Origin: a virus
Lineage: Duplodnaviria; Heunggongvirae; Uroviricota; Caudoviricetes
Reading direction: 5' to 3' (one strand)
DNA length: 38,345 nucleotides
IMG/VR virus record: IMGVR_UViG_3300031087_000514
Made by a program: the position numbers and the translations under genes
Shown: in pieces, positions 1-31,774 of the stretch
Layout of the letters: each line of letters begins with the position of its first letter
Numbering within the stretch: position 1 is the stretch's first letter
The notes under the pieces: model-generated
Told to the model about the DNA's origin: nothing
The model's input: the letters and a program-made list of their open reading frames with translations, nothing else
The model's database searches: none

Positions 1-2
1 TT

Positions 3-1778
3 ATGTCCTTTATGCCAGGGCCAGACTTCCCGACAGGATGCTTGGTTCTTGGAACAGATGGCATCAAACAAGCATACGAAACAGGTAAGGGCAAAGTCAC
101 TATCCGTGCGCCGTACCGTATAGAGGATGTGGGTCGTGGTAAAAAAGCCATTATCTTCTATGAACTTCCATACGAAGTCCGCTCTGAAAAAATCATTGAA
201 CAAATTAAAGAAAACCTTACCTCTGGCAAGTTACAAGGTATTGCAGACGTGCTGGACCTTACAGACCGTCGTAACGGAACAAACTTCTATGTAGAAACCA
301 AAGCAGGGTTCAATGTAGAAGCTTTAGTTGCTGCTCTCTACAAGATGACAGACCTTGAAGTAGCCTTCAACTACAACAATATTGCACTTACCCCTGAGGG
401 AGTTCCAGAGCAGCTTTCATTGAAACGCATGCTGGAAATCTTCATTGCTCATCGTATTGAAGTCGTCACCCGTAGAAGTGCAGCTCGTAAGAAATCTCGT
501 GAAGATCGTCTGCACACTATTGAAGGTCTTATCAAAGCGCTGGCAAACATCGATGAAGTTATTCGCATCGTTCGCGCTGCTGCTAACTCACAAGCCGCAC
601 AAGAAAATCTCATCAAAAAGTTCAAAATTGACGAGATTCAAGCAGACTACATCCTTAGTATCGCTTTGCGTCGTTTGACCAAATATGACCAGCTTGAGCT
701 TAAAAATGAGCAGAAGAAGCTTCAAGATGAAGTGAAAGCGCTTGACAAAATTTTGAATGATGAAAAAGTCCTCCGTGACCTCATCGGTAAAGAGTTAGAA
801 GAGACAAAGAAGGTTGTTGACCGTCCACGTCGTTCAACTTTGGTTGACGGCAACTTGGCAGAGCACTTGGAAGCTTCTAAGGCAGTAATCAGCGCAGGTA
901 GCTTTGAGGTTACTGACGCTCCTACTGTTGTTGGCGTATACGCTGATGGTTCAGTTGTCCGTGTTCCAGGTGAAAAAACCTCTGAAATCAAAGCAATTGG
1001 TCGCACTAAGGTAAACCCTGTTATCGCTTCTTTGGTGACGCACACTAAGGGTAAAATTGTGTTGGTCACAGATAAAGGCCGTGCATTCCGTGTTGATGTA
1101 TTCCACCTTGGGGAGAACAAGCCAACAGCTTCCTCAGCAGTTGTGCCAAGCCTTGCTAAGAACGAACGCATCGTCGCTGTCGCTCCTGTAGAAGATGAAA
1201 CTATCAAAGCTGGTCTTGGTGTATTCTTCGCTACGAAGCAAGGTTCGGTCAAGATTACAACACCTGACTACCCAGTGCGTAGTGATGAGTTTGACCTGAT
1301 TAGCCTTGCCGCAGGGGATGAGATTGTTACAGCTCGTTGGTTGGAATCAGCAGAAGGAGTGGAAGTTGCATTGCTTTCTTCTGATACCAGCTTGCTGACA
1401 TTCGCGGCTGAAAAGATTCGTCCTCAGGGTCGTAGCGGTGGAGGTATCGCAGGTATCAAGCTTGCTGCTGGTCAGTATGTTATGGCTGCAACTGCAATGC
1501 CTGCTGATGAAGCTGCGTTTGCAAACGTTTTGACCGTTACAGGTCAAACTGTCAAGCTTTCACCATTCAAAGCATACCCAGCAAAGGGTCGTGCAACAGG
1601 TGGAGTTCGCTCACACACCATGCTCAAAGGTGAAAACGGACTTGTTTCCGCATTCATTGGAGCTGATATCATTGGTGTCGACGCATCAGGGACAAAGGTG
1701 GCTTTGCCTCCTGTCAACCAGAAGCGTGATGCCTCTGGAACCAAGTCCACTGATGTTCCAGTAACATTCGGACGATAA
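3..1778 (+). CDS. parC: Type II DNA topoisomerase subunit A (GyrA/ParC family), 5'-truncated by the window edge
   Basis: GPDFPTG, ELPY, D.TDR..G, IDEVIRIVR and QADYIL...LRRLT core motifs, plus a beta-pinwheel CTD (IRPQGRSGGGIAGIKL, YPAKGRATGGVR). No QRRGGKG GyrA-box is seen, which favours the actinobacterial TopoIV-like subtype; parC vs gyrA is tentative. Confidence 0.88.
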   Translation: MSFMPGPDFPTGCLVLGTDGIKQAYETGKGKVTIRAPYRIEDVGRGKKAIIFYELPYEVRSEKIIEQIKENLTSGKLQGIADVLDLTDRRNGTNFYVETKAGFNVEALVAALYKMTDLEVAFNYNNIALTPEGVPEQLSLKRMLEIFIAHRIEVVTRRSAARKKSREDRLHTIEGLIKALANIDEVIRIVRAAANSQAAQENLIKKFKIDEIQADYILSIALRRLTKYDQLELKNEQKKLQDEVKALDKILNDEKVLRDLIGKELEETKKVVDRPRRSTLVDGNLAEHLEASKAVISAGSFEVTDAPTVVGVYADGSVVRVPGEKTSEIKAIGRTKVNPVIASLVTHTKGKIVLVTDKGRAFRVDVFHLGENKPTASSAVVPSLAKNERIVAVAPVEDETIKAGLGVFFATKQGSVKITTPDYPVRSDEFDLISLAAGDEIVTARWLESAEGVEVALLSSDTSLLTFAAEKIRPQGRSGGGIAGIKLAAGQYVMAATAMPADEAAFANVLTVTGQTVKLSPFKAYPAKGRATGGVRSHTMLKGENGLVSAFIGADIIGVDASGTKVALPPVNQKRDASGTKSTDVPVTFGR

Positions 1779-1789
1779 ACTCAACATCC

Positions 1790-1839
1790 AACTACCCTGT
1801 GGCTCAGAAATAACCAGTTTTCTGAGCCACAGGGTAGTT
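1790..1839. terminator. Perfect 21-bp inverted repeat (likely intrinsic terminator) after the topoisomerase gene
   Basis: AACTACCCTGTGGCTCAGAAA (1790-1810), 8-nt loop, TTTCTGAGCCACAGGGTAGTT (1819-1839). Confidence 0.75.
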
Positions 1840-1858
1840 CCGTTATAGAATAACTACC

Positions 1859-2479
1859 ATGCGCAAAACAATCATTCGTTCAGTACTTGCTATCACAGCA
1901 GGATCAGCTTTACTCTTCTCATTGAGTTCCTGCACTGCAGAAGGCTTAGCTCCTGTGCAAGAAAAAGGTATCCGTAACTTCTACACCAGCTACGTCAAAG
2001 AAGCTACCTCACTTGACAACGATAAAATCAAAGCCGCGTACAGTGATTTGAAACAGCAAAACCTTACAGGGGTGGACACGAATACCGCTCGTGATACTAT
2101 CTTCAACCGTTTCGCTGAGGTTGAGCCAAAACTTTTTGATGAATATGCAGTTCAGTACGCAACCTATGATGAGGTTGGCGCAACTTACACCAGCGTTCTG
2201 CTGATGTCATTAGCTACTAAGGGTGTCGCAGTGAGTGCAGATTTCCCATCAGATGCTATCTCTAAAGAGTATGACAGCAAACTCAAAACCACTGTGTATG
2301 AGATTGACCGTTCCAAAATTACAGCGCCTGTACCGTTAGCAGCTGAAAGCCTTGTAAAGCCAGTCAACAAAGGTTCTTTGAAGCCTATCAAATTGGTTCA
2401 GGTGAAAGGTGAATGGAAAATCATTCCTGATGCGGAGTCTTTACAGGAAATTGGTATTCCTGATGAAAGCCAGAAATGA
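1859..2479 (+). CDS. Putative lipoprotein
   Basis: Basic N-terminus, hydrophobic stretch and lipobox LSSC. TAGAAT -10 lies 7 nt before the ATG (leaderless-type). Confidence 0.75.
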   Translation: MRKTIIRSVLAITAGSALLFSLSSCTAEGLAPVQEKGIRNFYTSYVKEATSLDNDKIKAAYSDLKQQNLTGVDTNTARDTIFNRFAEVEPKLFDEYAVQYATYDEVGATYTSVLLMSLATKGVAVSADFPSDAISKEYDSKLKTTVYEIDRSKITAPVPLAAESLVKPVNKGSLKPIKLVQVKGEWKIIPDAESLQEIGIPDESQK

Positions 2480-3672
2480 CCCTGAAACGTAAACCTCTGT
2501 TGGAACACACTATTGTCCGTAGTGACAATCTGGTGTTCATGCAGGAAAATGCTCAGAAGCTTCGTGAGCAGGTGGACTTCATCTACATTGACCCACCGAC
2601 TGTGGTCAAACCGTACCACAATACAGGCAAGATTCCTACACGTCGTCAGCATGAAAAATGGCTTGAATTGATGCGCCCACGCTTGGAAGCATCACGGCTC
2701 ACATTGAAAGACACAGGGGTTATAGCTGTAACTTCCTACGATAATGAGCAAGCCAGAATGCGTATACTTCTTGATGAAGCGTATGGTGAGCAGAACTTCA
2801 TTGGGATGCTTACTATTGATACAGGGAATGTCATTAACAATGCACGGTTCTTATCTGTATCTCATGAGTATTTATTTCTTTATGCGAAAAACTTATCCAT
2901 TCTCACTAAATCTGGAACAAAGTGGCGTAAGAAACGTGAAGGTTTAGAACCTTTGCGAAAGCAAGAGAAAAAGCTTCGCGCTAAATACAATGAAGACTAT
3001 GAAAGCATTTCTGAGGAGCTCAAACAATGGTTGAAGAATCAGAATGTTCCGCAGCGTTTGAAGCAATTCTATAATGCAGATGCAAAAGGATTGTACACGT
3101 ATTCTGATTTATCAGCTCCTAAAAATGGACTCAATTACACTGTAATCAATCCGAATACAGGACAGCCTGTTGCCGTTCCAAGTAGAGGCTGGGGTGTCAG
3201 TGAGGAAACGTTGCAAGAGCTTATTGCAACAGATAGTATTATCTGGGGTGCAAATGATGAGCATCAACCATTGAAAAAGCTTTACTTGAAAGACACCCCA
3301 GATCAGGTAATTCGCTCAGTGTTTTCCTTCCCATCCCGATCATCAGAGCGTCTTTTACAGAAGATTTTAGGGCCTGAGGTTGAATACCAGAACATCAAAG
3401 ATGTGGAGTACGTCAAGTATCTCATTGAAGTCTTCACACCTGAGAATGCGTTAGTGTTCGATTTCTTTGCTGGAAGTGGGACAACTGGACATGCGGTTCT
3501 TGATTTGAATTATGAAGATAATAATAGCCAACGTCGTTTTCTTTTATGTAGTAATGATGAAGGTGGAGTGTATTCACATATTCTCAAACCTCGTTTAGAG
3601 GCAATTATCTCAGGGCATTGGCATGATCGTCAGCATCGTCCAAGAAAAGCAACATTGAAAACAAAGTTTTGA
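2476..3672 (+). CDS. Type III Mod-like (beta-class) DNA amino-methyltransferase with altered catalytic motif
   Basis: VDFIYIDPP, S..HEY and FDFFAGSGTTGHAV...N.ED...RRFLL motifs. The DPPY motif reads DPPTVVKPYHNTG. ATGA overlap with the upstream gene. Confidence 0.85.
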   Translation: MTLKRKPLLEHTIVRSDNLVFMQENAQKLREQVDFIYIDPPTVVKPYHNTGKIPTRRQHEKWLELMRPRLEASRLTLKDTGVIAVTSYDNEQARMRILLDEAYGEQNFIGMLTIDTGNVINNARFLSVSHEYLFLYAKNLSILTKSGTKWRKKREGLEPLRKQEKKLRAKYNEDYESISEELKQWLKNQNVPQRLKQFYNADAKGLYTYSDLSAPKNGLNYTVINPNTGQPVAVPSRGWGVSEETLQELIATDSIIWGANDEHQPLKKLYLKDTPDQVIRSVFSFPSRSSERLLQKILGPEVEYQNIKDVEYVKYLIEVFTPENALVFDFFAGSGTTGHAVLDLNYEDNNSQRRFLLCSNDEGGVYSHILKPRLEAIISGHWHDRQHRPRKATLKTKF

Positions 3673-3708
3673 TAGGTAAACAAATACAAATGCTACAATT
3701 GGTGTGTA

Positions 3709-5514
3709 ATGATTAGTAACGAAGTAAAAGAAGAAATCCGCAGCAAGATAGACATTGTTGAGTTTTTAGAGAACCGTGGTGTTGCTCTAAGAGTCGCTGG
3801 TGCTAACTTTGTTGGCTTATGCCCATTCCATGCTGAACGCACACCATCTTTCAATGTGCGTCCAGCCAACCAGCGTTATCGTTGCTTCGGCTGCGGTGAA
3901 GAAGGTGACATCTTCACTCTGGTTCAGCAGATGGAGCAGTTGAGCTTTACAGGTGCAATCCAGTACCTTGCTGATGAAGCAGGGGTCAAAGTTACCAACG
4001 AAGAAGATGACGAACAGTACCGTCAGCTCAAACGTATGCAGGATATGAACAAAATTGCTGCTGAGTTCTTCCGTGAAAACTTCATGAGTCTTCCTGACCA
4101 GCATCCTGCAAAGCAGAACCTTGCAAAGCGTAACCTTTTAGAGTTCGCTAAAACGGACCCTTCCATCGGTTATGCTCCTAACGCAGGTTTGATGAAGTTG
4201 CTTTACTCCCATCGTTTCTCCAAAGAAGAAATTGTGGCAGCAGGTTTAGCGAAAGCTACCGAAGTGCATGGTAATGAAGACACAAACCGTATCGCTACTA
4301 TTAGCAATGGTGAGGTTCGTGAGAAGTTCCGTAACCGCCTCATGTGGACAATCTACAGCATCGAAGGCCGTCCTGTGGGCTTCTCAGGTCGTCGTGTTTA
4401 TGACGAGAATGACAAGGTTCCAAAATATCTAAACTCACCCGCCACCCGTCTGTTCAATAAGTCAAAAGCGCTTCTTGGATTGAACTTCGCACGCAAAGCT
4501 ATCGTAGATGAACGAGCTGTGTATGTTGTTGAAGGCCAGACTGACGTTATGGCGCTACAAGCTGCAGGTGTTCCTAATGTTGTAGCTTCTTTGGGTACAG
4601 CGTTCGGAACATTCCACGCTGATATGCTTTCTCGTTTAGCAGCAACTTCTGCGAAGAAGAAAGACCAGTTCAAGTTCTACTTCGCATTCGACCCTGACGC
4701 TGCTGGTGTTGAAGCTGCATCCAAAGTGTTCAAAGGTATCCCTGAAATTCAGCTGAACAGCTATGTTGTCAGTCTGGCGAAAGAGATTGAAGACCCTGAG
4801 ACAGGCGATAAATCAATGGTCTTCCCTGATCCATGTGATTATCGTTTGAATTACGGGGATGAGGACCTGTTACAGGCACTAAGTCAGAGCATCAGTATGG
4901 TGGAGTTCATCTTACGTCAAGAGCTAAAAAACCATGACGTTCTTTCTCCTGAGGGTCGTAGCGCATTCATTAGTGCAGCCAGACCAACTCTTGCAGTTAT
5001 CAAAGACCCTCTTGCCCATGACGCGTATCTTCGTAAGATTTCCTACTGGACAGGAACCGCATATGCGCAGTTGGTTGAACTTATCAAGAAACCTCAGCAG
5101 AGTCTGAACCAAGAGTTTGCTCAGCAGCAACGTCGTGATGAGACAACTATTGATGAGAAAATCTTTGCTGCTTTCCTGCAATATCCCGACCAAATGTTCC
5201 ACATTTTCAGTACACGTAAACTCACAGTTGATTTGTTCAGTGATAGAAACCGTGCTGCTGAGATTATTCAGTATCTCCCTGAGGAAGACGCTCTTGCATT
5301 CCATGACTTGAAGATTCCTGAGGGCAAAGAAGAACAACTACTGAAACGCTTAGTAGATATGTTCTTGAATATCAAATACAGAGAAGCTGTGGAGAACCTA
5401 AACGCACGGTTTGCGGCAGCAACAAGTGATGATTCTTCCTTAGTAGATGAAACCTTGTTATTTGAAATTCTTCAAGAACAACAAGCATTGAAAACAAAAT
5501 ACCAACAAGCATAA
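3709..5514 (+). CDS. dnaG: DNA primase
   Basis: CHC2 zinc finger (CPFHAERTPSF..CFGC), KYLNSP and TOPRIM motifs (VVEGQTDV, FAFDPDAAG, PDPCD). Confidence 0.96.
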   Translation: MISNEVKEEIRSKIDIVEFLENRGVALRVAGANFVGLCPFHAERTPSFNVRPANQRYRCFGCGEEGDIFTLVQQMEQLSFTGAIQYLADEAGVKVTNEEDDEQYRQLKRMQDMNKIAAEFFRENFMSLPDQHPAKQNLAKRNLLEFAKTDPSIGYAPNAGLMKLLYSHRFSKEEIVAAGLAKATEVHGNEDTNRIATISNGEVREKFRNRLMWTIYSIEGRPVGFSGRRVYDENDKVPKYLNSPATRLFNKSKALLGLNFARKAIVDERAVYVVEGQTDVMALQAAGVPNVVASLGTAFGTFHADMLSRLAATSAKKKDQFKFYFAFDPDAAGVEAASKVFKGIPEIQLNSYVVSLAKEIEDPETGDKSMVFPDPCDYRLNYGDEDLLQALSQSISMVEFILRQELKNHDVLSPEGRSAFISAARPTLAVIKDPLAHDAYLRKISYWTGTAYAQLVELIKKPQQSLNQEFAQQQRRDETTIDEKIFAAFLQYPDQMFHIFSTRKLTVDLFSDRNRAAEIIQYLPEEDALAFHDLKIPEGKEEQLLKRLVDMFLNIKYREAVENLNARFAAATSDDSSLVDETLLFEILQEQQALKTKYQQA

Positions 5515-7208: not shown

Positions 7209-7796
7209 GTGGCTGTTTTTACCAAGACCGTACCTGACCACCAGTACGTTCACCTTCGGGACCTTTTCATGACCGCTCTGAGCGTGGACGAGTTCCACGC
7301 TATGGAGTTCTACGTCTCCTCAGGATACAAGAGCATCAACCGTTCCATGCTGAACGTTGAAGAATTTGATGGCACTCGTACTGAGGAAAGCTACAAAGCT
7401 ATTATTCAGAACATTCATTCAGCTCTTGACCGAAACATTCTCGGGGAGAAGCTTCCGACTCTGTACCGTGGAACTCGTCAGCAGTTCATTGAGCATTACA
7501 ATGAAGGTGATGAGGTTGAGTTCCCGTTCTTCCTTTCGGCTTCAACGGACCCTGTTATCGCTGCACGGTTTGCAGGAGAAGAAGAACCTGCGGTTCTTGT
7601 TATCAATGGTGTCTCTGAGCGTTATGCTTTGACTTCCCTGACAACTGATGAGAAGGAAGTGCTAATTTCCCCGTTTAGCCGATTTAAGGTAGATACTATT
7701 ACTCGAGGAGTTTCCTTCCAGCCTGAATACGATTCAACTGGTTTCTACGCTCCTGCCCGAAAAAATGTTACAGTAGTTGAATTGACTGTCTTGTAG
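7209..7796 (+). CDS. Mono-ADP-ribosyltransferase, VIP2/Alt-like R-S-E family
   Basis: Y...GY..IN..L helix, LYRG, FLSAS and DEKEVL (E-x-E), followed by FKV. GTG start. Confidence 0.85.
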   Translation: MAVFTKTVPDHQYVHLRDLFMTALSVDEFHAMEFYVSSGYKSINRSMLNVEEFDGTRTEESYKAIIQNIHSALDRNILGEKLPTLYRGTRQQFIEHYNEGDEVEFPFFLSASTDPVIAARFAGEEEPAVLVINGVSERYALTSLTTDEKEVLISPFSRFKVDTITRGVSFQPEYDSTGFYAPARKNVTVVELTVL

Positions 7797-8264: not shown

Positions 8265-9017
8265 ATGCCTGAAGAGTTACGTCGTTTAGACGATTTCATG
8301 AATCAGCCCAAAGATGCTGATGATGACTTTGAGCTTGATTTTAAACCTGATTACTTGTACTCCTCAGCTGAGGAAATGAAGCAGCTTATCCGATCAGGGC
8401 AGAAAGTTTTTGGTGTGCCAGCAGCTTCCCTGACTTGGGGTATTGATGGTAACCGTATGAAAGCTTCTCTCATGCCTGGTATGGAAGGTGAAAGGCATAC
8501 AGCGAAGATTCTGGATGCTTTCGCAGCGAAAACCCCTGGTGTTTTTGTATTCCATTCACTGTCATGGCCTGAATCAAATGGTGACACTGACCACATTCTT
8601 GTGTACAAGGATTTGATAGTTGTTATTGACTCCAAACGTTGGAAAGCTCAACGCAAATATTCAGTTACTGATAAAGGCGCAATCAAACGAGGAACCGTAT
8701 ACTTCCCACAAGGAAGAGTGAAGATCGGGTATGCGTTAAAAAGCTGGCGGAAGAAAACTCCCAAAGATGTAAAAGTCATGGGTATTGTCTGCATTGCTCA
8801 GCAGAAGGTTTTTGTTACCCGTGATAAGAACTGGTATAAAGCTCCGTACCGTTTAGTGGAGTCAGAGAAGCTTGTTGAACAGTTAGAATTCATGATTGAT
8901 AAGCATAAGACTTCTAAGCAGGGCGTATCTGGTTCTTTACTGCTGTATTTCACAAAGCTGTTAGTCAAACCTCGTGACATTCTTGCGGAGATTCTCAACA
9001 AAGAAGCTTTGGAATAA
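8265..9017 (+). CDS. NERD-domain (PD-(D/E)xK-like) nuclease
   Basis: G.EGE..TA..L, VFHSL, GDTDHILV and VVIDSKRWK motifs. Confidence 0.8.
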   Translation: MPEELRRLDDFMNQPKDADDDFELDFKPDYLYSSAEEMKQLIRSGQKVFGVPAASLTWGIDGNRMKASLMPGMEGERHTAKILDAFAAKTPGVFVFHSLSWPESNGDTDHILVYKDLIVVIDSKRWKAQRKYSVTDKGAIKRGTVYFPQGRVKIGYALKSWRKKTPKDVKVMGIVCIAQQKVFVTRDKNWYKAPYRLVESEKLVEQLEFMIDKHKTSKQGVSGSLLLYFTKLLVKPRDILAEILNKEALE

Positions 9018-12135: not shown

Positions 12136-13029
12136 ATGAAACGAAGTACAAAAATTATCATCGCAATCATTGCTGTGCTTGCAGTAGTCGGCTCTGTCAT
12201 TGCAGGAGTTGTGGCAACTGGTAGTGCAACGCCGAAAACAACAGCGAACATCCAGAAAGAGTATAAGGACGCTTTCAAAGGAGCGAAATACTACAAGGAT
12301 GTTCAAGTCCAAACCTACTCTGGAACTTCTACAACTCCTCAGGAGAATGAGAACAAAGAAGCTGACAGTGCAGCAATTGACTTGCAGCTAAATACCCTTA
12401 CCTCATCTGACTTCAAAGACTTTTTAGATCGTCTTCCCAAAATGGAGATTACAACCTACTACAAAATTGCAGTAGACAAAAAAGAAGCTTACACGGGTTT
12501 GTACGGATTCACATACAAAGATTTGACCGACAAAGATTTTGACAGTAAGATTGCCTCCATCTTGAAAAAGCGTGAAAGCGACAAAGACACTACGTATCTG
12601 CAAGTTTCAGCAGGTAATGTCACCTCAGAGGAGAAGAAAGCTCTGACGGTTTCTATTACTTCACCTGTAAACACTGTTGAAGGAACGCGTAAAGCTGTTG
12701 ACTCTTACCTTGCGAAGAACGTCGATGTCATCGCAGTGAATCTTCCTGATGTCGGTGGTCAGAGCTATTCTCAGAACGCTGTTGTTGATGGAAAGACAGC
12801 TGATTTCAACAAGATTGTTGACTTTGGTCTACAGTTTGGTAAAGCAGTCTTCTCTCCAACGAACGAGATTTCTGTTGTCGGCAAGGATAAGACAGTAACT
12901 ATTTCCTTTGCGAACGTGGATAAAGGCATCACCAAAGAATCATTGCAGAAAACTGCTGATTCTATCAACGCTGGTGGAGCATATGGTTTGACTATCAAAG
13001 TTAACGACCAGACGAAGCCGCAGCAGTAA
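12136..13029 (+). CDS. Secreted or membrane-anchored protein
   Basis: MKRSTK plus a long hydrophobic signal/anchor; Thr/Lys/Asp-rich extracellular-type body. Confidence 0.72.
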   Translation: MKRSTKIIIAIIAVLAVVGSVIAGVVATGSATPKTTANIQKEYKDAFKGAKYYKDVQVQTYSGTSTTPQENENKEADSAAIDLQLNTLTSSDFKDFLDRLPKMEITTYYKIAVDKKEAYTGLYGFTYKDLTDKDFDSKIASILKKRESDKDTTYLQVSAGNVTSEEKKALTVSITSPVNTVEGTRKAVDSYLAKNVDVIAVNLPDVGGQSYSQNAVVDGKTADFNKIVDFGLQFGKAVFSPTNEISVVGKDKTVTISFANVDKGITKESLQKTADSINAGGAYGLTIKVNDQTKPQQ

Positions 13030-13041
13030 ATAAAGACATAC

Positions 13042-13087
13042 ATGAAGAAGGGCTACGAAACTTAGTTGTTTCGTAGCCCTTCTTCAT
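13042..13087. terminator. Bidirectional terminator between convergent genes
   Basis: ATGAAGAAGGGCTACGAAAC-TTAGTT-GTTTCGTAGCCCTTCTTCAT, perfect 20-bp stem. Confidence 0.8.
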
Positions 13088-13093
13088 TGCTGT

Positions 13094-13528
13094 TTAAGCG
13101 TAGATGCTTTCATCCTTGTAACGCAACCAGTCACCATGCTCAATGAGCGGCAAAGTCTCCCGAACGCGAAGGCCAGTGTGCTCAGATGCAATGTAAATCC
13201 ACGCCTGACGGTCAAGACCATCAACAGTGAACTCCAACAGCCTACGGTCGTAGTGGTTCATGTAGGAACCCTCACCGTGGAATCCTTCAAGGAAGTCCAA
13301 GCCCTGCATGGTCTCATCGTAGTTCTCAGAGTCCAGGTACACCAGGGTCGCAGTAACAGTGCCCTCAGCATCAACAAGGTACGGGAACCCACCATTGGTG
13401 TACATCTGGAAACCATCAATGGTCACATCCTGCTCGAGGATAGTGTTTCCAGCAAGGAAAGCATTGTAGTTGCCACAGCCAGGACGTAAAGTTCCGTAAA
13501 CAAGGACAGGATACTGTGTGGTGGTCAT
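13094..13528 (-). CDS. Gamma-glutamylcyclotransferase (AIG2-like)
   Basis: VLVYGTLRPG, GGFPYL, LDFLEG and YDRR motifs. ATG 13528 has a GGAGAG RBS; the ORF track's 13573 start overlaps the -10 box. Confidence 0.88.
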   Translation of the reverse strand: MTTTQYPVLVYGTLRPGCGNYNAFLAGNTILEQDVTIDGFQMYTNGGFPYLVDAEGTVTATLVYLDSENYDETMQGLDFLEGFHGEGSYMNHYDRRLLEFTVDGLDRQAWIYIASEHTGLRVRETLPLIEHGDWLRYKDESIYA

Positions 13529-13678: not shown

Positions 13679-16600
13679 ATGTGTCAAGCAATACGTGACG
13701 GTGGACGGCGTTGTCCTGTCCACCAGCACCAAAACATTGCAGCTATCAAAGCTGCTTCTCATCTGAGTGGTCTTACTCGTTTGCAGACTGAACGTATGTT
13801 CGCTGAACTTCGTCGTGAAGGTCGTAACGCTGAGCCTATCTCAAACCGTCTCCGTGCAGGATCAGTTCGTCGTTTACGTAATGCTGTCAATGGTACTCCT
13901 GTTGAGGCTGACGTAACAGCAGAGCTTGAGCGCTCCGCTATTCACGACCATGAAATTGACCCAGCATCAGCATATGCTAACCGTGCACTTATCGCCCGTA
14001 GCCGTGAACGAGCAGCTAACTTGGATCAGCGTTTCCAGGAAGTAGCTAACCGTACAGGTTTGACAAAGCAGGAAGTTGCTCAGAAGTACAAAGAGTTCCG
14101 TGACGCTGTTGACACTAGCCGCGGTTCTGACGTACCAGGTGAATATGACCAGAATACTCGTCGTGCAGCTGTTATTGCTAACCTTCCATATGACCGTGCA
14201 TCTGTTGTCGCATTAGTCAAAATTGACAACTTGACAGAAGCGCAGAGCGAACGTCGCGTTACTCTTATCCCTGCACCTGCAGAATCTCACATCAATGCTT
14301 TCGGATATGATGAAGGCCGTTTGGAAATTGAGTTCGGCAGTCGTTTAGGTGAACCATATTCTTACCAGAATGTTCCAGAAGCTCTTTGGGAAGAACTCCG
14401 TGACAGTGACTCACCAGGTCGTATCTTCGCACGCGAGATTCGTAACAACACTGATTACCAGTACGCTTCACAGGCAGAAGCTGAACGTGATGCTGTACGC
14501 GTACGCTGTGGTGCTTGTGGTCAGTTCCGTGCAGCGTCTCACACCTGCCCCGAGCGTGAGGTTCGCGCTGAACTCTCCAACGCTCCTTTGACTATTGAAC
14601 AAGTTCGGGACGTTCTTGATTCACAAGAAACTGATGTACCAGAAGATGCTGCTGTTGAACCAGTAGATGCTCCTTTAGCTGAAGAAACTCCTTCATTGCC
14701 TGAAAACAATGAGCCTGTTATAGCTGAAACACCAGCAGAAGCTGCTGCACCTGTACCTGAAACATTTATTGTTGCTGCATCTGATATGCCTGACTTGGCC
14801 AACAATCCTGTTGCTCAGGAAGTCCCTGAGCAAACAACGGGATTCCCAAATCAGGTAGGTGCTGATGAAGTGCCAACAGTAGAAACTCCTGAGCGTACTG
14901 TTCTGTCACAATTCCGTCCAGAGAAGCTTGACACCAGTGGTTTGGTTGTCAAAGAAGTTGCTGATTTGTCTCAGCGTCCTGTTTTCATAAACTCTGCAAA
15001 CGTTGATGATTATAGCTGGCAGCTAAGTACTTTGTCTGAATCTGAAAAAGATATCATCAGAAATGCTCCAGCAAACATGCGTTTTGTCATTGGACGAACA
15101 GAGAATTCTCCTAACCAGACCATCCAGAGTAGCTATGACGGTAATGTGTACAATGCTCAAGCTGTCGTAGGTTGGGGTCTCAACGGCACATCTTCCAGTA
15201 ATTACTCTGTAGGTTATCGTATTGCCCGCAAAGGACAGAGCGCTCCTACCCAAACCTTCACAGCAGAAGAAAAGACTGCGGCTGTTGAAGCTGAAAACGC
15301 TGTTCTTACTCAACTTGTTGAAAATGGAACAGCAGAGCGTATTCCATCTATTGCCAGTGAAACACGCCGTTACACAACAGATGCTAATTTGAAAGAACAG
15401 CCTTTCGTCCGTTTCGGTAACGCTGTTGCATTGAAGCGTGCATTGCGTCAAAATAAAGTCGCTATTGTTCCTGTAAGCTTCCGCTCAAAGGAAGGTACGA
15501 AAGGTGACTATGTAGATGACCAGGGTTACAATGTTTACACTCGTTCGCGTAACCAAGTCACAGGTGATGTCGCTCTTCGTCGTGGAGAAAACGGTGCCAT
15601 TGAAGTTATTTCATCCAGCCGTACTTTGAAATGCACTTGCCAGGACTACCGTATGAGATACCATTGCCAGCACGTTGATTATATTCACCGTCATGCAGGA
15701 AATATCGCCCAGCAAATTGCTCCAACCGCAGAAGCTCAGGCTACTGTCGCTCTTACCCCAGAAGGCCAGCACAGCAATCTGTTAACTTCTGCTTTGTCCC
15801 GTCGTGCAGATATTTCTGTTCAGACAAATGAAGATGGGTCACCATACATCTCCTTCGGGGACAACTTGTACGCTGCTGGTAGCCCACGAACAAATTATAG
15901 TCATCAGTACTTCAACCGTCTCCGTATTCCTGAGCGTTTGCGCCCAGCTGACCCTCAGAACATCACAGAAGAAGAAGCTTTGGAGCTATACAAATACCAA
16001 CAGCTTATTTCTCAATTGAATGGACTGACAACAGTAAATTCACCAGCTGCTATTCGTACGGCTGTACGTCGTGCAGACGTTGATGTTCCTGTGACTGGTG
16101 GATTCTACCATTATACTAATGGACGTTCAGAGCGTGCAGAAGTGACTGGAACAATGCGTATCGGTCAGCAGACAGGCGAAATTGAAGACCTGCAAGTGCG
16201 TAGTCATAACTTAAAATGCACCTGTGCTGAGTATGCTGAAAACTACACTTGCCCTCACGTACGTTTTGTCTCCGAGCAGGCATTCGGTATTGCTGGTATC
16301 GGTAGCCAGCAGAATGCCACGACTCACACATGGAGCGGCGCACAGATTGCTTACAGTGAAGACATGCGTGGTGTTGCTGAATTGCAGACATACATTGCTC
16401 GAGGACACTCCGCTGAGGAAGCTCGTCGTCTTATCCGCGAAGAGCGCGAGGCTCGTGTACGTCAAGAAGCCGAGCGTCAGGAACGTCGTCAGCGTGCATT
16501 GGCTGAACAAGCAGAACGTGATGCACGTTATGCTCGTGAGCAAGCAGAACGTTTAGCAACAGCAAACGCTCCTGTTATTGAAGACACAAACGCATATCGT

Positions 16601-17683
16601 GAGCGTATGATGAGCCGTTGGGAAGAACAAGAAGAAGGTTACACATCTAACCCGAAGCAGTTCTACGATGACCACAAAGATGCACTTCGTCGTAAGCGTA
16701 ACGGTGAAGACCCAATTCCATTCCGTACAGAAAACGTCACAGACGGTATTTGTGCTGATGAGCCAGGTGCACGTCAGTTTGGTATTGAGTTGGAGTTCGA
16801 CATCAAACGTGGCGTTGACCGTCGTACAGCTATTCAGAACATCGGTCGTGAACTGCACGAAGCTGGTTTGACAGAACACTCAGGTCAGGACGGGTACCAC
16901 ACTGCTCGTCGTAATGGATGGTCAAGCTGGTCATTGGAGAATGACTCAACAGTCGATGCTGAGCTCGTTTCTCCATTGATGAAAGACACTCCTGAGCACT
17001 GGGAACAGCTGCGTAAGGTTTGTGAAATCATCAACCGTAACGGTGGTGTAGCATCCTCCCGCACCGGTTCACACGTTCACGTTTCAACTGCATCCTACGG
17101 ACTGTCAACAGCAAAGCACGCTGAGTTGCTGCGTACAGTGAACAACAATGAAGACGTGTTGTACCGTATGGCATCCAATCCTGCACGAGGAACACACCGT
17201 GGAACGCAATGGTGTGCACCAAACGCAAGTGACCGTGCTGGAGATGTTAACGAAGAAATCATGAACGGTCACCGCGTTCTTGGTGGACATTCTTCACACA
17301 TGGTTGGTTTGAACTTCGAAGGAACAGCAAACACTGACTTCAAGAAATCAAACGTTGAGTTCCGTATGTGGGACGGTAGCATTGACCCTGCTGTCATCCA
17401 GCAGCAGGTTGCAATGTCAGCTGCTATCACAGACTATGCTGAGCGTAAAGTTGTCAAAGACAAGATTTCACGCAGTGGTGCTGCAACGGACCGTGTTCGT
17501 ATCGGTGCCGGTAAGGCTAAGGAGCGTCAGGCTCTCAACTCAGCTGGAACACAGACTCACACAGAGGAAACCTTCAAAGAGTCAACTGAGCAAGCCGCTC
17601 AGTTCTTCGACAAGATTTTCCGTCGCCGTGAAGACCGTGCAGCAGCTGCATCCTTGTTCGCAGTAACTAACTGGAACGATTAA
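13679..17683 (+). CDS. 1334-aa multidomain protein: N-terminal Cys/His motif, KTSC domain, Zn knuckle, two SWIM zinc fingers, coiled coil and C-terminal amidoligase (COOH-NH2 ligase) domain
   Basis: KTSC: SHINAFGYDEGRLEIEF..YSYQNVPEALWEEL..SPGR. Knuckle: CGACGQF..HTC. SWIM: CTC..Y...CxH twice. Ligase: FGIELEF, ENDSTVDAELVSP, GSHVHVS, VEFRMWDG. Confidence 0.82.
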   Translation: MCQAIRDGGRRCPVHQHQNIAAIKAASHLSGLTRLQTERMFAELRREGRNAEPISNRLRAGSVRRLRNAVNGTPVEADVTAELERSAIHDHEIDPASAYANRALIARSRERAANLDQRFQEVANRTGLTKQEVAQKYKEFRDAVDTSRGSDVPGEYDQNTRRAAVIANLPYDRASVVALVKIDNLTEAQSERRVTLIPAPAESHINAFGYDEGRLEIEFGSRLGEPYSYQNVPEALWEELRDSDSPGRIFAREIRNNTDYQYASQAEAERDAVRVRCGACGQFRAASHTCPEREVRAELSNAPLTIEQVRDVLDSQETDVPEDAAVEPVDAPLAEETPSLPENNEPVIAETPAEAAAPVPETFIVAASDMPDLANNPVAQEVPEQTTGFPNQVGADEVPTVETPERTVLSQFRPEKLDTSGLVVKEVADLSQRPVFINSANVDDYSWQLSTLSESEKDIIRNAPANMRFVIGRTENSPNQTIQSSYDGNVYNAQAVVGWGLNGTSSSNYSVGYRIARKGQSAPTQTFTAEEKTAAVEAENAVLTQLVENGTAERIPSIASETRRYTTDANLKEQPFVRFGNAVALKRALRQNKVAIVPVSFRSKEGTKGDYVDDQGYNVYTRSRNQVTGDVALRRGENGAIEVISSSRTLKCTCQDYRMRYHCQHVDYIHRHAGNIAQQIAPTAEAQATVALTPEGQHSNLLTSALSRRADISVQTNEDGSPYISFGDNLYAAGSPRTNYSHQYFNRLRIPERLRPADPQNITEEEALELYKYQQLISQLNGLTTVNSPAAIRTAVRRADVDVPVTGGFYHYTNGRSERAEVTGTMRIGQQTGEIEDLQVRSHNLKCTCAEYAENYTCPHVRFVSEQAFGIAGIGSQQNATTHTWSGAQIAYSEDMRGVAELQTYIARGHSAEEARRLIREEREARVRQEAERQERRQRALAEQAERDARYAREQAERLATANAPVIEDTNAYRERMMSRWEEQEEGYTSNPKQFYDDHKDALRRKRNGEDPIPFRTENVTDGICADEPGARQFGIELEFDIKRGVDRRTAIQNIGRELHEAGLTEHSGQDGYHTARRNGWSSWSLENDSTVDAELVSPLMKDTPEHWEQLRKVCEIINRNGGVASSRTGSHVHVSTASYGLSTAKHAELLRTVNNNEDVLYRMASNPARGTHRGTQWCAPNASDRAGDVNEEIMNGHRVLGGHSSHMVGLNFEGTANTDFKKSNVEFRMWDGSIDPAVIQQQVAMSAAITDYAERKVVKDKISRSGAATDRVRIGAGKAKERQALNSAGTQTHTEETFKESTEQAAQFFDKIFRRREDRAAAASLFAVTNWND

Positions 17684-19323: not shown

Positions 19324-19353
19324 GATATGCATAACGTTGAAAGGAGCCTACCG

Positions 19354-19842
19354 ATGGCTATCAAGGACAGACTGTACGCTGACCGTACTAAGTATCTCAA
19401 GGACCGTAACGAGCTGGGGCTTTCTACCCTTCGCGGACTCATCGCCGCTGTTGAAGGTGCGGAAAAGAACGGTATCGGGGAGCCTATTGTTCTCAGCGAT
19501 GCTCGGGTTCAGGAGGTCCTCAACACCGAGCTGAAAAAGCGCCGTAGTGCTGCTTCTGAGTATGCTAAGGCTGGTCGAACTGACCGAGCTGAGCGTGAGC
19601 TTGCTGAGGGTGAGCTTATCAAAGAGTACCTGCCGTATCAGCTTACTGAGGAGGCAGTTGCTGACCTCGTAAACACTGCCATCAAGGAGCTTGGTGAGAA
19701 CGCCAACATTGGGCAGGTTATGAAGCTTGTCAATCCTCACACCAAGGGACGCGCTGACGGTAAGCTTGTCAGCGGTCTGGTCAAGGCAAAGCTTGACGAG
19801 ATTGCTCAGGCTGAGGCTCAGGCAGCAGCCGAAGTGCAGTAA
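19354..19842 (+). CDS. yqeY: GatB/YqeY domain protein
   Basis: LSTLRGLIAAV..E, ELKKRRSAASEYAKAGRTD.AERE..E...I.EYLP.QLTEE, G.VMK and GRADGK motifs. AAGGAG RBS before ATG 19354. Confidence 0.92.
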   Translation: MAIKDRLYADRTKYLKDRNELGLSTLRGLIAAVEGAEKNGIGEPIVLSDARVQEVLNTELKKRRSAASEYAKAGRTDRAERELAEGELIKEYLPYQLTEEAVADLVNTAIKELGENANIGQVMKLVNPHTKGRADGKLVSGLVKAKLDEIAQAEAQAAAEVQ

Positions 19843-20819: not shown

Positions 20820-21797
20820 ATGACAGCAGTTTGCATGAACAAGGGCGAGCATAGTGAGACCTATGCGGCTTTGACTCTTTTGACTAATCCCAGTATTTTG
20901 AGCAAAAAATATGACCCTTCGCAGTCAGTTGAATGGATTGTAGGGTCTAAGACAGTTTCTATATTGAATAATGACTTAATTGTGTATGACACAATTTCTT
21001 CTCAAACTAACACACTTCATTTGCCAGATGTGCAACTCTTGCTTGCTAATTTTTTGAGTGATATCAAAAAAGGCAAAGGAGTCTTTGCTTGTTCTTCTAT
21101 GCTAGCAGTGTATGCATTTTTATTAGAAAATCAGGTGCCTCTTAAAGCTGCAAGCACTACCAAAGTTGATCTTACTATTCAGGTAGCAGAAACGGTATAT
21201 AGACTTTCAGTAAAGTCTTTTCTCGGCTCTAACCCAACAGTTCTTAACGCTAATAAAAAAGCAACTCAGATTGCTTTTCGCGTAAAAGGTCCTGGGATTA
21301 TTGTTTCTTCTGCCAAAAAATCTTCAATTTCTAAGCTTCGGTCACAAGCAAAAGCTGGAACTTTGGAATTAGAGTATACTGATTTTGAAGATACAAACTT
21401 CAAACAATACATAGCAAAATCAGGCATTAAACCAGACCGATTTGCTCAGATGGTTATGGATTACAAATTCCGAGGCAAAGGAAGTTCTTTTGACTCTCAT
21501 ATTACTATGCAAGAGAAGAAATCGTTCGCAAAACTTGCAACAATGCTACTTGTCGACCCCCTTCGTAAAGTCCAGAAAAACGTAGTATCTGCTGACGTTC
21601 CTACTCATATTTTGGCTATTGAGAAATCTGGTTTAGCGCGAATTATGGAAGCTGACGAGTTGCTTAGTCGTTTGGTTTTAGATTCAGCTTCTCAGAGTCG
21701 CCATGATTATGGCTACATCTACACACGCAAATCCGATAGTTATGTTAACATTGCTGTTAGCATTCGAGTAAAACCATCTAAGCCAGAAAGTCGTTGA
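20820..21797 (+). CDS. HpaII-family type II restriction endonuclease-like protein
   Basis: NKGEHSETYA (cf. NKGEWSE.Y), KA.ST.KVDL, SVKSFLGSNPTVLNA and LDSASQSRHDYG.IY resemble HpaII-family motifs as I recall them. Adjacent to a 5mC MTase. Confidence 0.75.
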   Translation: MTAVCMNKGEHSETYAALTLLTNPSILSKKYDPSQSVEWIVGSKTVSILNNDLIVYDTISSQTNTLHLPDVQLLLANFLSDIKKGKGVFACSSMLAVYAFLLENQVPLKAASTTKVDLTIQVAETVYRLSVKSFLGSNPTVLNANKKATQIAFRVKGPGIIVSSAKKSSISKLRSQAKAGTLELEYTDFEDTNFKQYIAKSGIKPDRFAQMVMDYKFRGKGSSFDSHITMQEKKSFAKLATMLLVDPLRKVQKNVVSADVPTHILAIEKSGLARIMEADELLSRLVLDSASQSRHDYGYIYTRKSDSYVNIAVSIRVKPSKPESR

Positions 21798-21804
21798 TTC
21801 ATCT

Positions 21805-22716
21805 ATGCCAAACAAGTTAAAAGTTATTGACTTATTTGCAGGTATTGGTGGTTTTCACCAAGCATTTCATAACCTAGGAGCAAGAGTAGTTTTCGCTTCT
21901 GAATGGGAAGACAATGCGCGCAAAACATATCAAGAAAATTTTGCACACGTTTCCCCTGAAATATTCACTGAGAATAATTTTGCGGGAGATATTACACAAG
22001 TAGTTCCGTCGAGCATTCCAGATTTTGATATCGTTACAGGCGGTTTTCCTTGCCAGCCTTTTTCTCATGCAGGAAAACGTCAAGGGTTTCTTGATGAAAA
22101 GGGTAGAGGTAATTTATTCTTTGACATAGCTAATATTATTAAAGAAAAACAACCGAAAGCCTTCTTTTTAGAAAATGTGCGCGGTCTTCTAAATCACGAT
22201 GGTGGCAATACATTTGCTGTCATTCAAAATATTATTAAGGACCTTGATTATAGTTTCCATTGGAAAGTCGTAAAAGCCTCTGATTTTAATGTGCCTCAAC
22301 ATAGACCACGTGTTTTTATGGTAGGATTTAGAAAAGATATTGATGATTCGAATTTTACTTTTCCTGAGTCTCTTCCACTGACTAATACTATCAGCGAAGT
22401 TCTTGGCGGAAAAGTAACAAATGCGAATGGGGTTGAAAGAACAGTTGGTTTTACTCTCCGTGTAGGTGGACGACGCTCTGGCATTCATGACCGTCGTAAT
22501 TGGGACGGTTATACAGTTGATGGAACGCCAAGGTTCCTCACTGTTGATGAAGGAAGAAAAATGCAAGGTTTCCCAGAGGGATTTACTTTTCCTGTTTCGG
22601 AAGTGCAAGCTTTCAAACAGCTGGGAAACAGTGTTGCAGTTCCCGCAGTCCAAGCAACAGCGAAGAAAATTATTGAAGTTCTTTCACTAAACATACAGCT
22701 TGACGAAACAGCATAA
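21805..22716 (+). CDS. dcm: DNA (cytosine-5)-methyltransferase
   Basis: DLFAGIGG, GDI, GGFPCQPFS, ENV, PQHRPRVF and KQLGNSV motifs. Confidence 0.96.
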   Translation: MPNKLKVIDLFAGIGGFHQAFHNLGARVVFASEWEDNARKTYQENFAHVSPEIFTENNFAGDITQVVPSSIPDFDIVTGGFPCQPFSHAGKRQGFLDEKGRGNLFFDIANIIKEKQPKAFFLENVRGLLNHDGGNTFAVIQNIIKDLDYSFHWKVVKASDFNVPQHRPRVFMVGFRKDIDDSNFTFPESLPLTNTISEVLGGKVTNANGVERTVGFTLRVGGRRSGIHDRRNWDGYTVDGTPRFLTVDEGRKMQGFPEGFTFPVSEVQAFKQLGNSVAVPAVQATAKKIIEVLSLNIQLDETA

Positions 22717-25243: not shown

Positions 25244-25879
25244 TTAGTTCTTACGAGCCAACTCTAACGCAACAACGTTAGAAGGAGTGCCGAATGTAAT
25301 ATAACCAATGCGTGACAGTGAACGCAGAAGCTGTAAGTCATCTGATGGGCGTAGCCAGATGATGTTCTTTACCTCAGCATAGTCACCTTCGCTGGAAAGG
25401 GGAGGGAGAATATCTGTGTAAGGAGTATAAGAAGTGTCTACCAAAACAAGCTGAATATCGCTGTTCCAGAAGTCAGGCTGCTCATCATCCTGTTCTGAGC
25501 CAATTGGACGTGAACCATCGCCCCAACCATATGGATCAAAGCCTGTTTCATCGCTACCATAGTTGAGAACTTCCCATTCCCATTCTTTGAGAGCCTCCAT
25601 CTGCTCCTGAGTCAAGTTACCCAGAATGGTTGCACGGGCAAGTTGCTGCACCAAACGAGCAAGGCTCAAACGAGCATCTTTACGGGCATCAGCATCAAGT
25701 AACAAGTAATCACGGATGATGAAATCTAAACATTCTTCTGGAGTGTCAGCATCAACAATGCGCTGGTCATTGTCGAAGAACATCCTCCACGAATAGTTTT
25801 CTCCATCTTCTTTCAACGCAGGAGCGGGCGCACGATTATCACGTGTAAGAGGGTTGTTGGTGGACACAATAGCAACCAT
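25244..25879 (-). CDS. Hypothetical acidic protein
   Basis: 211-aa ORF with an AGGAAA RBS and a TCCGATAG motif upstream. Confidence 0.75.
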   Translation of the reverse strand: MVAIVSTNNPLTRDNRAPAPALKEDGENYSWRMFFDNDQRIVDADTPEECLDFIIRDYLLLDADARKDARLSLARLVQQLARATILGNLTQEQMEALKEWEWEVLNYGSDETGFDPYGWGDGSRPIGSEQDDEQPDFWNSDIQLVLVDTSYTPYTDILPPLSSEGDYAEVKNIIWLRPSDDLQLLRSLSRIGYITFGTPSNVVALELARKN

Positions 25880-30450: not shown

Positions 30451-31074
30451 TTATTTGTTCTTACGAGGAGGAAGAATCACATCAGCAATTCCGTACTCAA
30501 TAGCCTGCGGGGCAGTCAAGAACTTATCACGCTCCAAGTCGAGGTTGATTTCCTCGGAAGTCTTGCCAGTGAAATCAGCGAGAGTATCTTCAAGCCAAGT
30601 ACGCATACGCAGCATCTCAGCAGCCTGAATCTCAATGTCAGAAGCCTGACCACGCTCGCCCTGAGTAGATGGCTGGTGAATCATCACACGGGAGTTCGGC
30701 AAAACTGCACGCTTACCCTTCTGGCCAGCAGCCAGGATAACAGCAGCAGCGGAAGCAGCCTGGCCCAAGCAGACAGTAGAAACGTGCGGCTTGATGTGCT
30801 GCATGGTGTCAATGATTGCAGCGAGAGCTGTCATACTTCCACCAGGGGAGTTGATGTACATTGTGATGTCAGCGTTGCTATCCATGACTTCAAGAGTCAA
30901 CAGCTGCACCATAATGTCATTCGCTGAAGTGTCATCAACCTGAGTACCGAGGAATACAACACGCTCAGAGAAAAGCTTAGCGTACGGGTCCTGCTGCTTC
31001 ATGCCGTAAGGGGTGCGCTCTTCAAAAGAAGGAAGAACGTAACGAGCCTCAGGGTTCATTGCGGAAAGATTCAT
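30451..31074 (-). CDS. clpP2: ATP-dependent Clp protease proteolytic subunit, ClpP2-type
   Basis: RYVLPSFEERTPYG..DPY.KLF.ER.VFLG, YINSPGG, GQAASAA (Ser), MIHQP (His), ERDKF (Asp). Start uncertain between 31059 and 31080. Confidence 0.93.
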   Translation of the reverse strand: MNLSAMNPEARYVLPSFEERTPYGMKQQDPYAKLFSERVVFLGTQVDDTSANDIMVQLLTLEVMDSNADITMYINSPGGSMTALAAIIDTMQHIKPHVSTVCLGQAASAAAVILAAGQKGKRAVLPNSRVMIHQPSTQGERGQASDIEIQAAEMLRMRTWLEDTLADFTGKTSEEINLDLERDKFLTAPQAIEYGIADVILPPRKNK

Positions 31075-31076
31075 AA

Positions 31077-31691
31077 TCAAGCACCAGCCTTAGCGTCAGA
31101 AGCGGAAATTTCAGTCACATTGTGAGCATGGGTGATGATGTGGTCAACGAAACCATACTCCAATGCCTCATCAGCTGTGAACCAGCGGTCACGGTCACCA
31201 TCAAGATTAATCTGCTCAACAGTCTTACCAGTGGCCTCAGCGGTGATGGTAGCGAGACGCTTCTTCATGTCAAGGATAAGCTCAGCCTGACGACGAACAT
31301 CTGACTCAGTTCCGCCCATACCACCAAGCGGCTGGTGTAGAAGGACTCGGGCGTTCGGGGTGATGAAACGCTTCCCCTTGGTCCCAGCGTTGCTGAGAAG
31401 GAACTGGCCCATTGAAGCAGCCATACCAACAGCAACAGTTGCAACATCATTTGGAATCAGTTTGATAACATCATAGAGCATGACACCGGCGGTAACACTT
31501 CCACCAGGAGAGTTGATGTAGAGGAAAATATCTGATTCTCGGTCCTGAGCTGACAGTAGGAGCATCTTAGCGCTCAGGTCAGCCATGTTTTCATCATTTA
31601 CCTCACCATTGAGCCACAGGATACGACTCTTTGTGAGCTGATCCATAGGATTGAGGGTAACAGGAACTGAAGGGTTTTGCACACTAGTCAA
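31077..31691 (-). CDS. clpP1: ATP-dependent Clp protease proteolytic subunit, ClpP1-type
   Basis: [28 protein letters not shown] and [14 protein letters not shown] 31691 follows a GAGGA RBS. Confidence 0.93.
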
Positions 31692-31774
31692 AGGTGTTTT
31701 CCTCTTTCTTACTTGTAATGTAAGCCAGAGTCTACCATACTTCTTCTCAAACAACCTAATCGGGTAAGTGTGTC

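Follow-up and report, generated by a model that had tools for sequence, protein, structure and literature searches.

The gene at positions 13679-17683 of a 38,345-nucleotide viral sequence (IMG/VR record IMGVR_UViG_3300031087_000514, Caudoviricetes; this whole stretch is called the window below) encodes a protein of 1334 amino acids (aa), P0001, in which a C-terminal ligase domain of the Amidoligase_2 family is joined to a long series of zinc-binding, KTSC and SWIM modules. On the evidence of sequence profiles and a structural model, the C-terminus is a ligase of the glutamine synthetase (GS)/glutamate-cysteine ligase (GCL) fold with intact active-site residues. The same architecture recurs in a large family, its genes are linked to those of a GGACT-type gamma-glutamyl cyclotransferase and of a partner protein of ~200 aa, and all three proteins are depleted of lysine. 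We tentatively propose that P0001 may carry out ATP-dependent, probably gamma-glutamyl, ligation to the lysine amines of proteins chosen by its KTSC and SWIM modules, and that GGACT may reverse this reaction.

From the ATG at 13679 to the stop codon at 17683, the + strand forms one uninterrupted open reading frame (ORF) with the following features:

13679-17683 (+): multi-domain Amidoligase_2 protein P0001, complete ORF, 1334 aa
13679-13738 (+): Cys-Cys-His tag, residues 1-20 (M1, C2, G8, G9, R11, C12, H15), from an N-terminal alignment
13739-14263 (+): Arg-rich basic region, residues 21-195, pI about 9.7, fold unassigned, delimited by composition
14285-14449 (+): KTSC domain, residues 203-257, Pfam PF13619
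14507-14548 (+): putative CxxC..HxC zinc knuckle, C277-x2-C280...H288-x-C290, from the ligand pattern
14579-14968 (+): acidic Pro-rich linker, residues 301-430, net charge -23, delimited by composition
15296-15748 (+): predicted beta-rich module 1 with SWIM signature 1 at its end (C652, C654, C663, H665; 15632-15673), from the AlphaFold2 (AF2) model and the signature
15776-16333 (+): predicted beta-rich module 2 with SWIM signature 2 at its end (C847, C849, C858, H860; 16217-16258), a duplicate of module 1
16364-16633 (+): putative E/R-rich helix, residues 896-985 (19 R, 18 E, 0 K)
16634-17680 (+): Amidoligase_2 catalytic domain, predicted GS/GCL fold, residues 986-1334, from Pfam, AF2 and structure matches

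An earlier note, made from the sequence alone, had described a single fusion ORF with a Cys tag, a KTSC domain, a knuckle, an acidic Pro-rich linker, SWIM signatures and ligase motifs, and all of these lie where it had placed them. The tag residues listed above are invariant among 31 N-terminal sequences, and Met-Cys is the start of most homologues. All proposed zinc ligands are invariant in 40 full-length homologues of 31-86% identity, and the conservation of the motifs in these homologues is far beyond chance. KTSC is detected at 46.7 bits (cut-off 25, E 2.5e-12), and the family profile matches a solved KTSC protein (PDB 7x8c, E 6.4e-7). The zf-CCHC_6 profile (PF15288) scores 15.5 bits on the knuckle, under its cut-off of 22, and the CxxC..HxC element is probably best called an unclassified Zn knuckle. 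No Pfam family matches residues 21-195. The linker, which contains 28 D/E and 17 P with just 5 K/R, is weakly conserved among homologues.

The catalytic domain matches Amidoligase_2 (PF12224) over residues 1032-1181 with a score of 41.9 bits (cut-off 22; E 1.4e-10), and PHROG 2443, "amidoligase enzyme", is matched at 5e-12. The four motifs that the earlier note had listed as intact are all present at the C-terminus: ExE (1037/1039), ELVSP (1095-1099), GxHVH (as GSHVH, 1130-1134) and EFR (1227-1229). Among 40-43 sequences, E1037, E1039, E1087, E1095, H1132, R1163, R1174, E1227 and R1229 are invariant and H1134 is kept in at least 90%; their assignment to GS roles is by pattern and not by superposition. 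The ligase assignment had been staked in advance on whether the C-terminus would model as a GS-like fold, and the AF2 model of residues 985-1334, based on a 43-sequence alignment, does so with pLDDT 92.3 and pTM 0.93. The best PDB matches found by Foldseek are all glutamine synthetases (E about 1e-6, probability 1.00). With VIA, an exhaustive aligner, the best matches are the YbdK-type protein 1tt4 (Z 13.8), plant GCL 2gwc (Z 13.6) and GS (Z 12-13), with 245-262 aligned residues, a root mean square deviation of about 4 A and 11-14% identity. Dop (Z 12.2) and PafA (Z 10.5) come next; the matches to all these enzymes span 222-262 residues, and unrelated folds score about 6 or lower. The likeness to GatB/GatE is weak (Z 4-4.5, versus 13 for GS/GCL). 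Among viral structures in BFVD, the matches are phage "amidoligase" proteins, with those of Arthrobacter and Mycobacterium phages near the top; most of them are 250-620 aa in length, which agrees with the earlier statement that amidoligases are usually stand-alone enzymes.

P0001 resembles other Amidoligase_2 proteins (PF12224, PHROG 2443) in its GS-like fold, in the ExE/HxH/ExR residues, in its setting on phage-like elements and plasmids, and in the genes it is associated with, which encode a gamma-glutamyl cyclotransferase and, among relatives, a class II glutamine amidotransferase. It differs from the typical phage members, which stand alone at 250-620 aa, by ~980 extra residues, and its family has a dedicated ~200-aa partner and a lysine avoidance that are not described in the papers searched. 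YbdK, GCL and GS, despite the structural likeness, serve metabolism and lack targeting domains, and GS forms dodecamers. The nearest solved folds (1tt4, GCL and GS, together with gamma-glutamylmethylamide synthetase and 1-naphthylamine GS) are all small-molecule ligases, and they would suit a scaffolded enzyme that produces short peptides or gamma-glutamyl amines (e.g., a gamma-glutamyl-polyamine, as the GS-like PuuA does), with GGACT recycling the product and the N-terminal part serving only to localise or regulate the enzyme. Enzymes of the GGACT family also act on free gamma-glutamyl amines. However, the ~980 conserved Zn-finger, KTSC and SWIM residues, which are duplicated in part and vary across paralogues, are atypical for a metabolic enzyme, several paralogues are present per element, and the lysine avoidance described below would be left unexplained unless the acyl-phosphate were leaky. 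We thus regard a small-molecule product as decidedly unlikely.

The modules preceding the catalytic domain include two copies of the SWIM signature, CxC-x8-CxH, at residues 652-665 and 847-860, whose ligands are invariant in the 40 homologues. The Pfam SWIM model (PF04434) gives no match to P0001 at E<=1; it matches 3 of 44 diverse relatives (best E 3.7e-5), and there are precomputed matches on several full-length homologues too. The top match to the SWIM region in the AlphaFold database (AFDB) is a "SWIM-type domain-containing protein". Because of the signature, the Pfam matches in relatives and the AFDB match, we retain the earlier assignment of SWIM1 and SWIM2, although the Pfam model misses P0001 itself. 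Residues 540-885 are modelled by AF2 (pLDDT 86.5) as two beta-rich modules, each closed by a SWIM motif, and module 2 is 36% identical to module 1 over 66 aa (E 4e-8), indicating that the two are duplicates. No convincing solved relative of the SWIM region was found (Foldseek E>3e-3; VIA best Z 4.8); since the two modules were modelled jointly, this does not imply a new fold. The Atlas shape search of the SWIM region was likewise weak, and the Atlas feature searches matched neither the partner nor residues 1-300 and gave just sub-threshold SWIM leads for residues 431-890. P0001 shares with other SWIM proteins (PF04434; SWIM-SNF2 ATPases, MuDR transposases, MEKK1, ZSWIM8) the CxCxnCxH pattern after beta strands, twice over, but the papers searched pair SWIM only with SNF2 ATPases and never with an amide ligase.

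Between SWIM2 and the ligase, the earlier note had seen an R/E/Q coiled coil. The R/E-rich stretch does exist at residues 896-985; the heptad hydrophobic pattern is absent, however, and a canonical coiled coil was rejected for this reason. With 16 opposite-charge pairs at i/i+4 spacing, the stretch looks like an E/R single alpha-helix. Taken together, the N-terminal and middle parts of P0001 are predicted to be non-catalytic Zn/KTSC/SWIM modules, which fits a role in targeting.

Word-indexed searching yielded 74 homologues; some 45 are full length (1290-1420 aa), and a second size class spans 910-1010 aa. The short (~1000-aa) paralogues have the same N-terminus, a single SWIM module equivalent to SWIM2, the helix and the ligase. 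Because module 1 is the one missing from them, we conclude that the long form gained it. Many homologues are located on contigs of 0.5-0.88 Mb (0.5-0.9 Mb for the family, from uncultured sources), with 3-4 paralogues on a single contig, and a protein identical to P0001 is found on 878-883 kb contigs from several samples. A profile of residues 1-310 matched 975 clusters among 1.84 billion representatives, 127 of them at E<1e-30. The Pfam families detected in the 44 diverse members are solely KTSC (34), Amidoligase_2 (30) and SWIM (3), and wherever a C-terminal domain is detectable in proteins with the N-terminal module, it is always Amidoligase_2. The N-terminal module is thus specific to this enzyme and does not serve as a transferable address for other effectors.

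NCBI and UniProt contain unnamed members of the family, and no full-length member was found in GTDB species genomes. The ligase domain occurs at 35-42% identity in Streptomyces and other Actinomycetota, where it is often plasmid-borne and sometimes accompanied by KTSC. One Streptomyces plasmid bears three tandem amidoligases (L151 7035-13840) by ParB-N, DUF4417 and replication-relaxation genes, with a GGCT gene near; relatives on plasmids lie near ParB-N and relaxase-type genes. Similarly, four tandem amidoligases are next to ParB-N on a Kutzneria plasmid (L015 8576-17253), with two integrase genes near. The amidoligase paralogues on these plasmids differ in their N-termini. In the phage database there was no DNA match, a single and weak protein match, and nothing that resembled the first 60 aa, and IMG/VR yielded distant stand-alone amidoligases only. 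The literature searched contains no description of KTSC or SWIM fused to an amidoligase. The earlier note did not recall such an architecture, and indeed no paper found describes the fusion; it is, however, not a one-off, since sequence comparison places it in a large uncharacterised family of metagenomic origin.

As a giant multi-domain protein on mobile, phage-like DNA, P0001 is reminiscent of the polyvalent proteins (Iyer et al. 2017, PMC5512222), a paper in which amidoligase and KTSC are unmentioned and SWIM occurs only with SNF2 ATPases. The polyvalent-protein reading was rejected, as P0001 has one catalytic domain and no alternative warheads, and the N-terminal module is never found with other effectors among the 44 members.

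Some other genes of the window recur close to the ligase gene in relatives. The corresponding features of the window are as follows:

13094-13528 (-): GGACT/AIG2-like gamma-glutamyl cyclotransferase, divergent from the ligase, 144 aa with 1 Lys, Pfam PF06094
13572-13600 (-): promoter-like sequence of GGACT, TTGACA-17-TACAAT plus a TG upstream, 11/12 matches, a consensus match only
25244-25879 (-): member of the ~200-aa partner family, 211 aa, lysine-poor, with no known domain, recognised by identity to the partners of relatives
19327-19842 (+): YqeY gene, conserved in position with those at 13002-13448 in L152, 14135-14587 in L160 and 16174-16623 in L161

The GGACT protein matches PF06094 at 74.3 bits against a cut-off of 22.8 (E 1.6e-20), as well as PHROG 2520 and YtfP (1xhs, at 2e-6), and it retains the YGTLR and LDxLEG catalytic motifs. 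Its start was shifted from 13573 to the Met at 13528 because homologues begin there and the promoter-like site overlaps the first ATG; the Met at 13528 is probably the true start. The promoter-like site falls within the 150-bp control region from which GGACT and the ligase diverge. No GTTAG-N9-ATG box precedes the ligase gene. At 13042-13087 there is a perfect hairpin with a 20-bp stem and T-runs on both strands, resembling a bidirectional terminator, which separates the gene at 12136-13029 from GGACT and sets GGACT apart as a single-gene unit.

GGACT is divergently adjacent to the ligase gene not only in the window but also in L152 and L153, where the ligase homologues are 54% and 48% identical to P0001 and the other neighbours are different. 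In L160 and L161 (42% and 37% identity), GGACT is one inserted gene from the ligase, which brings the loci with a cyclotransferase adjacent to or one gene off the ligase to five in total. In L152, L153, L160 and L161, the ~200-aa partner gene is on the far side of GGACT, and the partner of the window is 53-64% identical to these GGACT-adjacent partners. Moreover, the partner family directly adjoins distant long forms, a short paralogue and an 828-aa form, and the partner of the latter (L157) aligns with that of the window at an hhalign probability of 99.7%. There are about 60 partner homologues on the same kinds of contig, none with a known domain, and the family has no match in Pfam, PHROG or PDB. 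An uncontrolled complex prediction for ligase residues 700-1334 and the window partner scored 0.00 and weighs neither way. Class II glutamine amidotransferase (GATase_6/7) genes flank two distant members, and the window contains none.

In the four loci listed above, where other neighbours change, a YqeY gene (GatB-tail-like, PF09424) follows the long-form ligase at a distance of 0-2.5 kb. The YqeY of the window is not lysine-depleted (K 8.2%), and the gene may be a fourth member of the module or plain synteny. The gene between GGACT and the ligase in L161 (8942-9799, -) is flagellin-like, and a TerD/TerC/TelA cluster (1-4515) is near on the same contig.

The Amidoligase_2, or COOH-NH2 ligase, family was reportedly defined through comparative genomics by Iyer and colleagues in 2009, who are also said to have linked amidoligases to amidotransferase and cyclotransferase genes; the neighbourhoods of the present family agree with that association. 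Mammalian GGACT cleaves gamma-glutamyl-epsilon-lysine, and in butirosin synthesis BtrG strips an amine of its gamma-glutamyl group. The domain family, the fold class and the cyclotransferase link are already known from comparative genomics. The confirmation of the fold, the dedicated architecture, the module of partner, GGACT and ligase, and a lysine depletion that extends over the module and is independent of position are new.

The ligase contains 2.5% K and 9.5% R (K/(K+R) 0.21, binomial P 1e-11), the GGACT protein has 1 Lys in 144 aa (K/(K+R) 0.12, binomial P 6e-4), and the partner contains 2.4% K and 6.6% R (K/(K+R) 0.26, binomial P 5e-3). For the other 41 genes of the window, the values are 6.8% K and 4.9% R, and K/(K+R) is never under 0.36. 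The depletion of the trio is repeated in relatives, including a locus of 36% GC where the background is 8.0% K and the trio has 2.1-2.6% K. At the variable columns of the ligase alignment K/(K+R) is 0.32, and in the weakly conserved E/R helix the 40 homologues sum to 55 K versus 736 R. The depletion is not merely inherited with conserved positions. A local GC effect was also rejected as the cause, since the depletion holds both in the 36% GC locus and at the variable columns. The same element encodes a 1015-aa paralogue ~6 kb upstream of the window (L159 1-1891), and just 2 of the last 629 residues of this protein are Lys (K 0.3%, R 11.1%). The gene immediately downstream of it, of 209 aa, is outside the partner family. 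At 36326-37105 (+) the window encodes a further protein with a related CQA...CPxH motif, located ~10 residues after the start and not immediately next to Met1; the protein has a normal lysine content (K 6.2%) and no Pfam or PHROG match.

If the host, possibly an actinobacterium, tags lysines by pupylation or by another system, the lysine poverty might be defensive and would say nothing about the substrate of the ligase. Among cellular organisms, the ligase domain has its nearest relatives in Streptomyces and other Actinomycetota, as mentioned above, Arthrobacter and Mycobacterium phages are among its top viral structural matches, and its fold is as near to Dop and PafA as to other GS-like enzymes, all of which would agree with such an origin. 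However, the depletion in the window is restricted to three linked genes; the protein at 36326-37105 and those of the ADP-ribosyltransferase (ART), primase and ClpP genes have normal lysine contents. This explanation therefore seems improbable to us. The earlier note had considered an amide ligase targeted either to nucleic acids or to proteins; the ligase fold and the targeting-type modules agree with this, and the lysine depletion of the ligase, GGACT and the partner makes protein lysines a likelier target than nucleic acids.

A nucleic-acid target would require that KTSC, the knuckle and SWIM bind DNA or tRNA, so that an amide-linked group (e.g., glutamyl) could be placed onto a modified base bearing an amine or carboxyl, or onto an aminoacyl-tRNA, with GGACT trimming the product and a class II amidotransferase joining in relatives. 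KTSC is called DNA-binding by one group (PMC9503650) and is described as the RNA-binding domain of lysyl-tRNA synthetase (PMC7824862), and amidoligase and glutamine amidotransferase genes co-occur in viral contigs with the 5-hydroxymethyluracil (5-hmU) kinase and aGPT-Pplase genes of thymidine hypermodification (PMC8989533). Gene neighbourhoods point the same way: besides the GATase_6/7 genes adjoining distant members, the YqeY genes and the ParB-N genes adjoining the actinomycete plasmid copies, a dCTP-deaminase-like gene is immediately upstream in L154. The N-terminal region and the SWIM1 module are moreover basic (pI about 9.5). On the other hand, KTSC and the knuckle lie in acidic segments (pI 4.4-5), no 5-hmU kinase, aGPT-Pplase, dUMP hydroxymethylase or TET/JBP is found among the Pfam matches of the window and its flanks, the GatB/GatE match is weak as noted above, and the lysine depletion of the three proteins would be left unexplained. 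A nucleic-acid-directed ligase is thus unlikely, though it deserves to be kept in view.

The basic charge of these parts of P0001, the DNA-binding ascribed to KTSC and the co-occurrence with hypermodification genes equally weigh against ligation to protein lysines, and so do several other points. The partner is displaced in the window, where it is 7.5 kb from the ligase and not adjacent; no GGACT gene lies within 8 kb of the distant members in L154, L155 and L156, showing that the adjacency is not universal; no substrate was observed; and the literature searched holds no Amidoligase_2 member with a published activity. In addition, the lysine depletion could reflect evasion of a lysine-directed system of the host or, in part, a high-GC actinomycete ancestry.

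Ligation to protein lysines, the reading that we favour, could proceed as follows. The gene would encode an active ATP-dependent carboxylate-amine ligase of the Amidoligase_2 family with the GS/GCL fold, whose catalytic domain would be kept apart by the E/R single helix and the long acidic linker from the recognition modules, namely the Cys tag, the basic region, KTSC, the Zn knuckle and one or two SWIM modules. The ligase would operate within a conserved three-gene module with the GGACT-type gamma-glutamyl(amine) cyclotransferase and the ~200-aa partner, whose role is inferred. A carboxylate, most probably the gamma-carboxyl of glutamate, would be activated as an acyl-phosphate, and the acyl group would be transferred to primary amines, most probably the lysine epsilon-amines of specific proteins bound by KTSC and SWIM. 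GGACT could then take the gamma-glutamyl group off as 5-oxoproline, such that the ligase would be the writer and GGACT the eraser. The proteins of the trio would minimise their own lysines to avoid self-modification, and paralogues with other recognition modules may address other targets.

Transfer of a glutamate gamma-carboxyl to protein lysine with a dedicated reversal is the chemistry of PafA, although for P0001 it is proposed only. P0001 resembles PafA and Dop in its GS-like fold (Z 10.5 and 12.2), but the relation is at the level of the fold, without membership at the level of sequence. Furthermore, the eraser here would be a GGACT cyclotransferase and not a Dop homologue; the C-termini of the ~200-aa partners are unconserved, with no terminal Gln/Glu, and differ in this from Pup; and no proteasome link is seen for the P0001 family. 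In a wider sense, giant phage-like elements and actinomycete plasmids might share a new reversible protein-modification system, in which paralogous zinc-finger-addressed writers place gamma-glutamyl or short-peptide marks on lysines of the host or the element, GGACT serves as the eraser and the system's own lysines have been purged. This broader proposal is possible but rather doubtful; such a system would be functionally parallel to pupylation and evolutionarily separate from it.

The remaining gene content of the window includes topoisomerase, primase, ClpP, restriction-modification and ART genes. No virion structural genes are found in the window, and IMG/VR contains no relative of its primase. 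An HpaII-like endonuclease and C5-methylase pair is located at 20820-22716 (+). Some copies of the element carry this pair, and otherwise identical contigs have a single 294-aa methylase in its place (L001/L002 versus L003/L005/L006); it is thus a strain-variable restriction-modification cassette. Two neighbouring ClpP-type protease genes lie at 30451-31778 (-), with Pfam CLP_protease confirmed for 31077-31778, and in the relative L152 a second ClpP is also called beside the first. An ART-like gene (PF01129) and two genes with NERD nuclease domains flank the ligase at 7209-7796 (+), 8265-9017 (+) and 32819-33859 (+).

Amidoligase_2 genes occur widely among phages, plasmids and giant viruses, and the family described here yields sharp hypotheses about them, since it offers a defined three-gene module, a plausible eraser and a lysine avoidance that points to the acceptor. 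If the proposed activity is true, it would represent a new enzymatic protein mark in the conflicts between phages or plasmids and their hosts, and would provide a first function for a widespread family of "hypothetical" enzymes. It would also help to explain why multiple copies of such large proteins are present on uncultured elements of 0.5-0.9 Mb.

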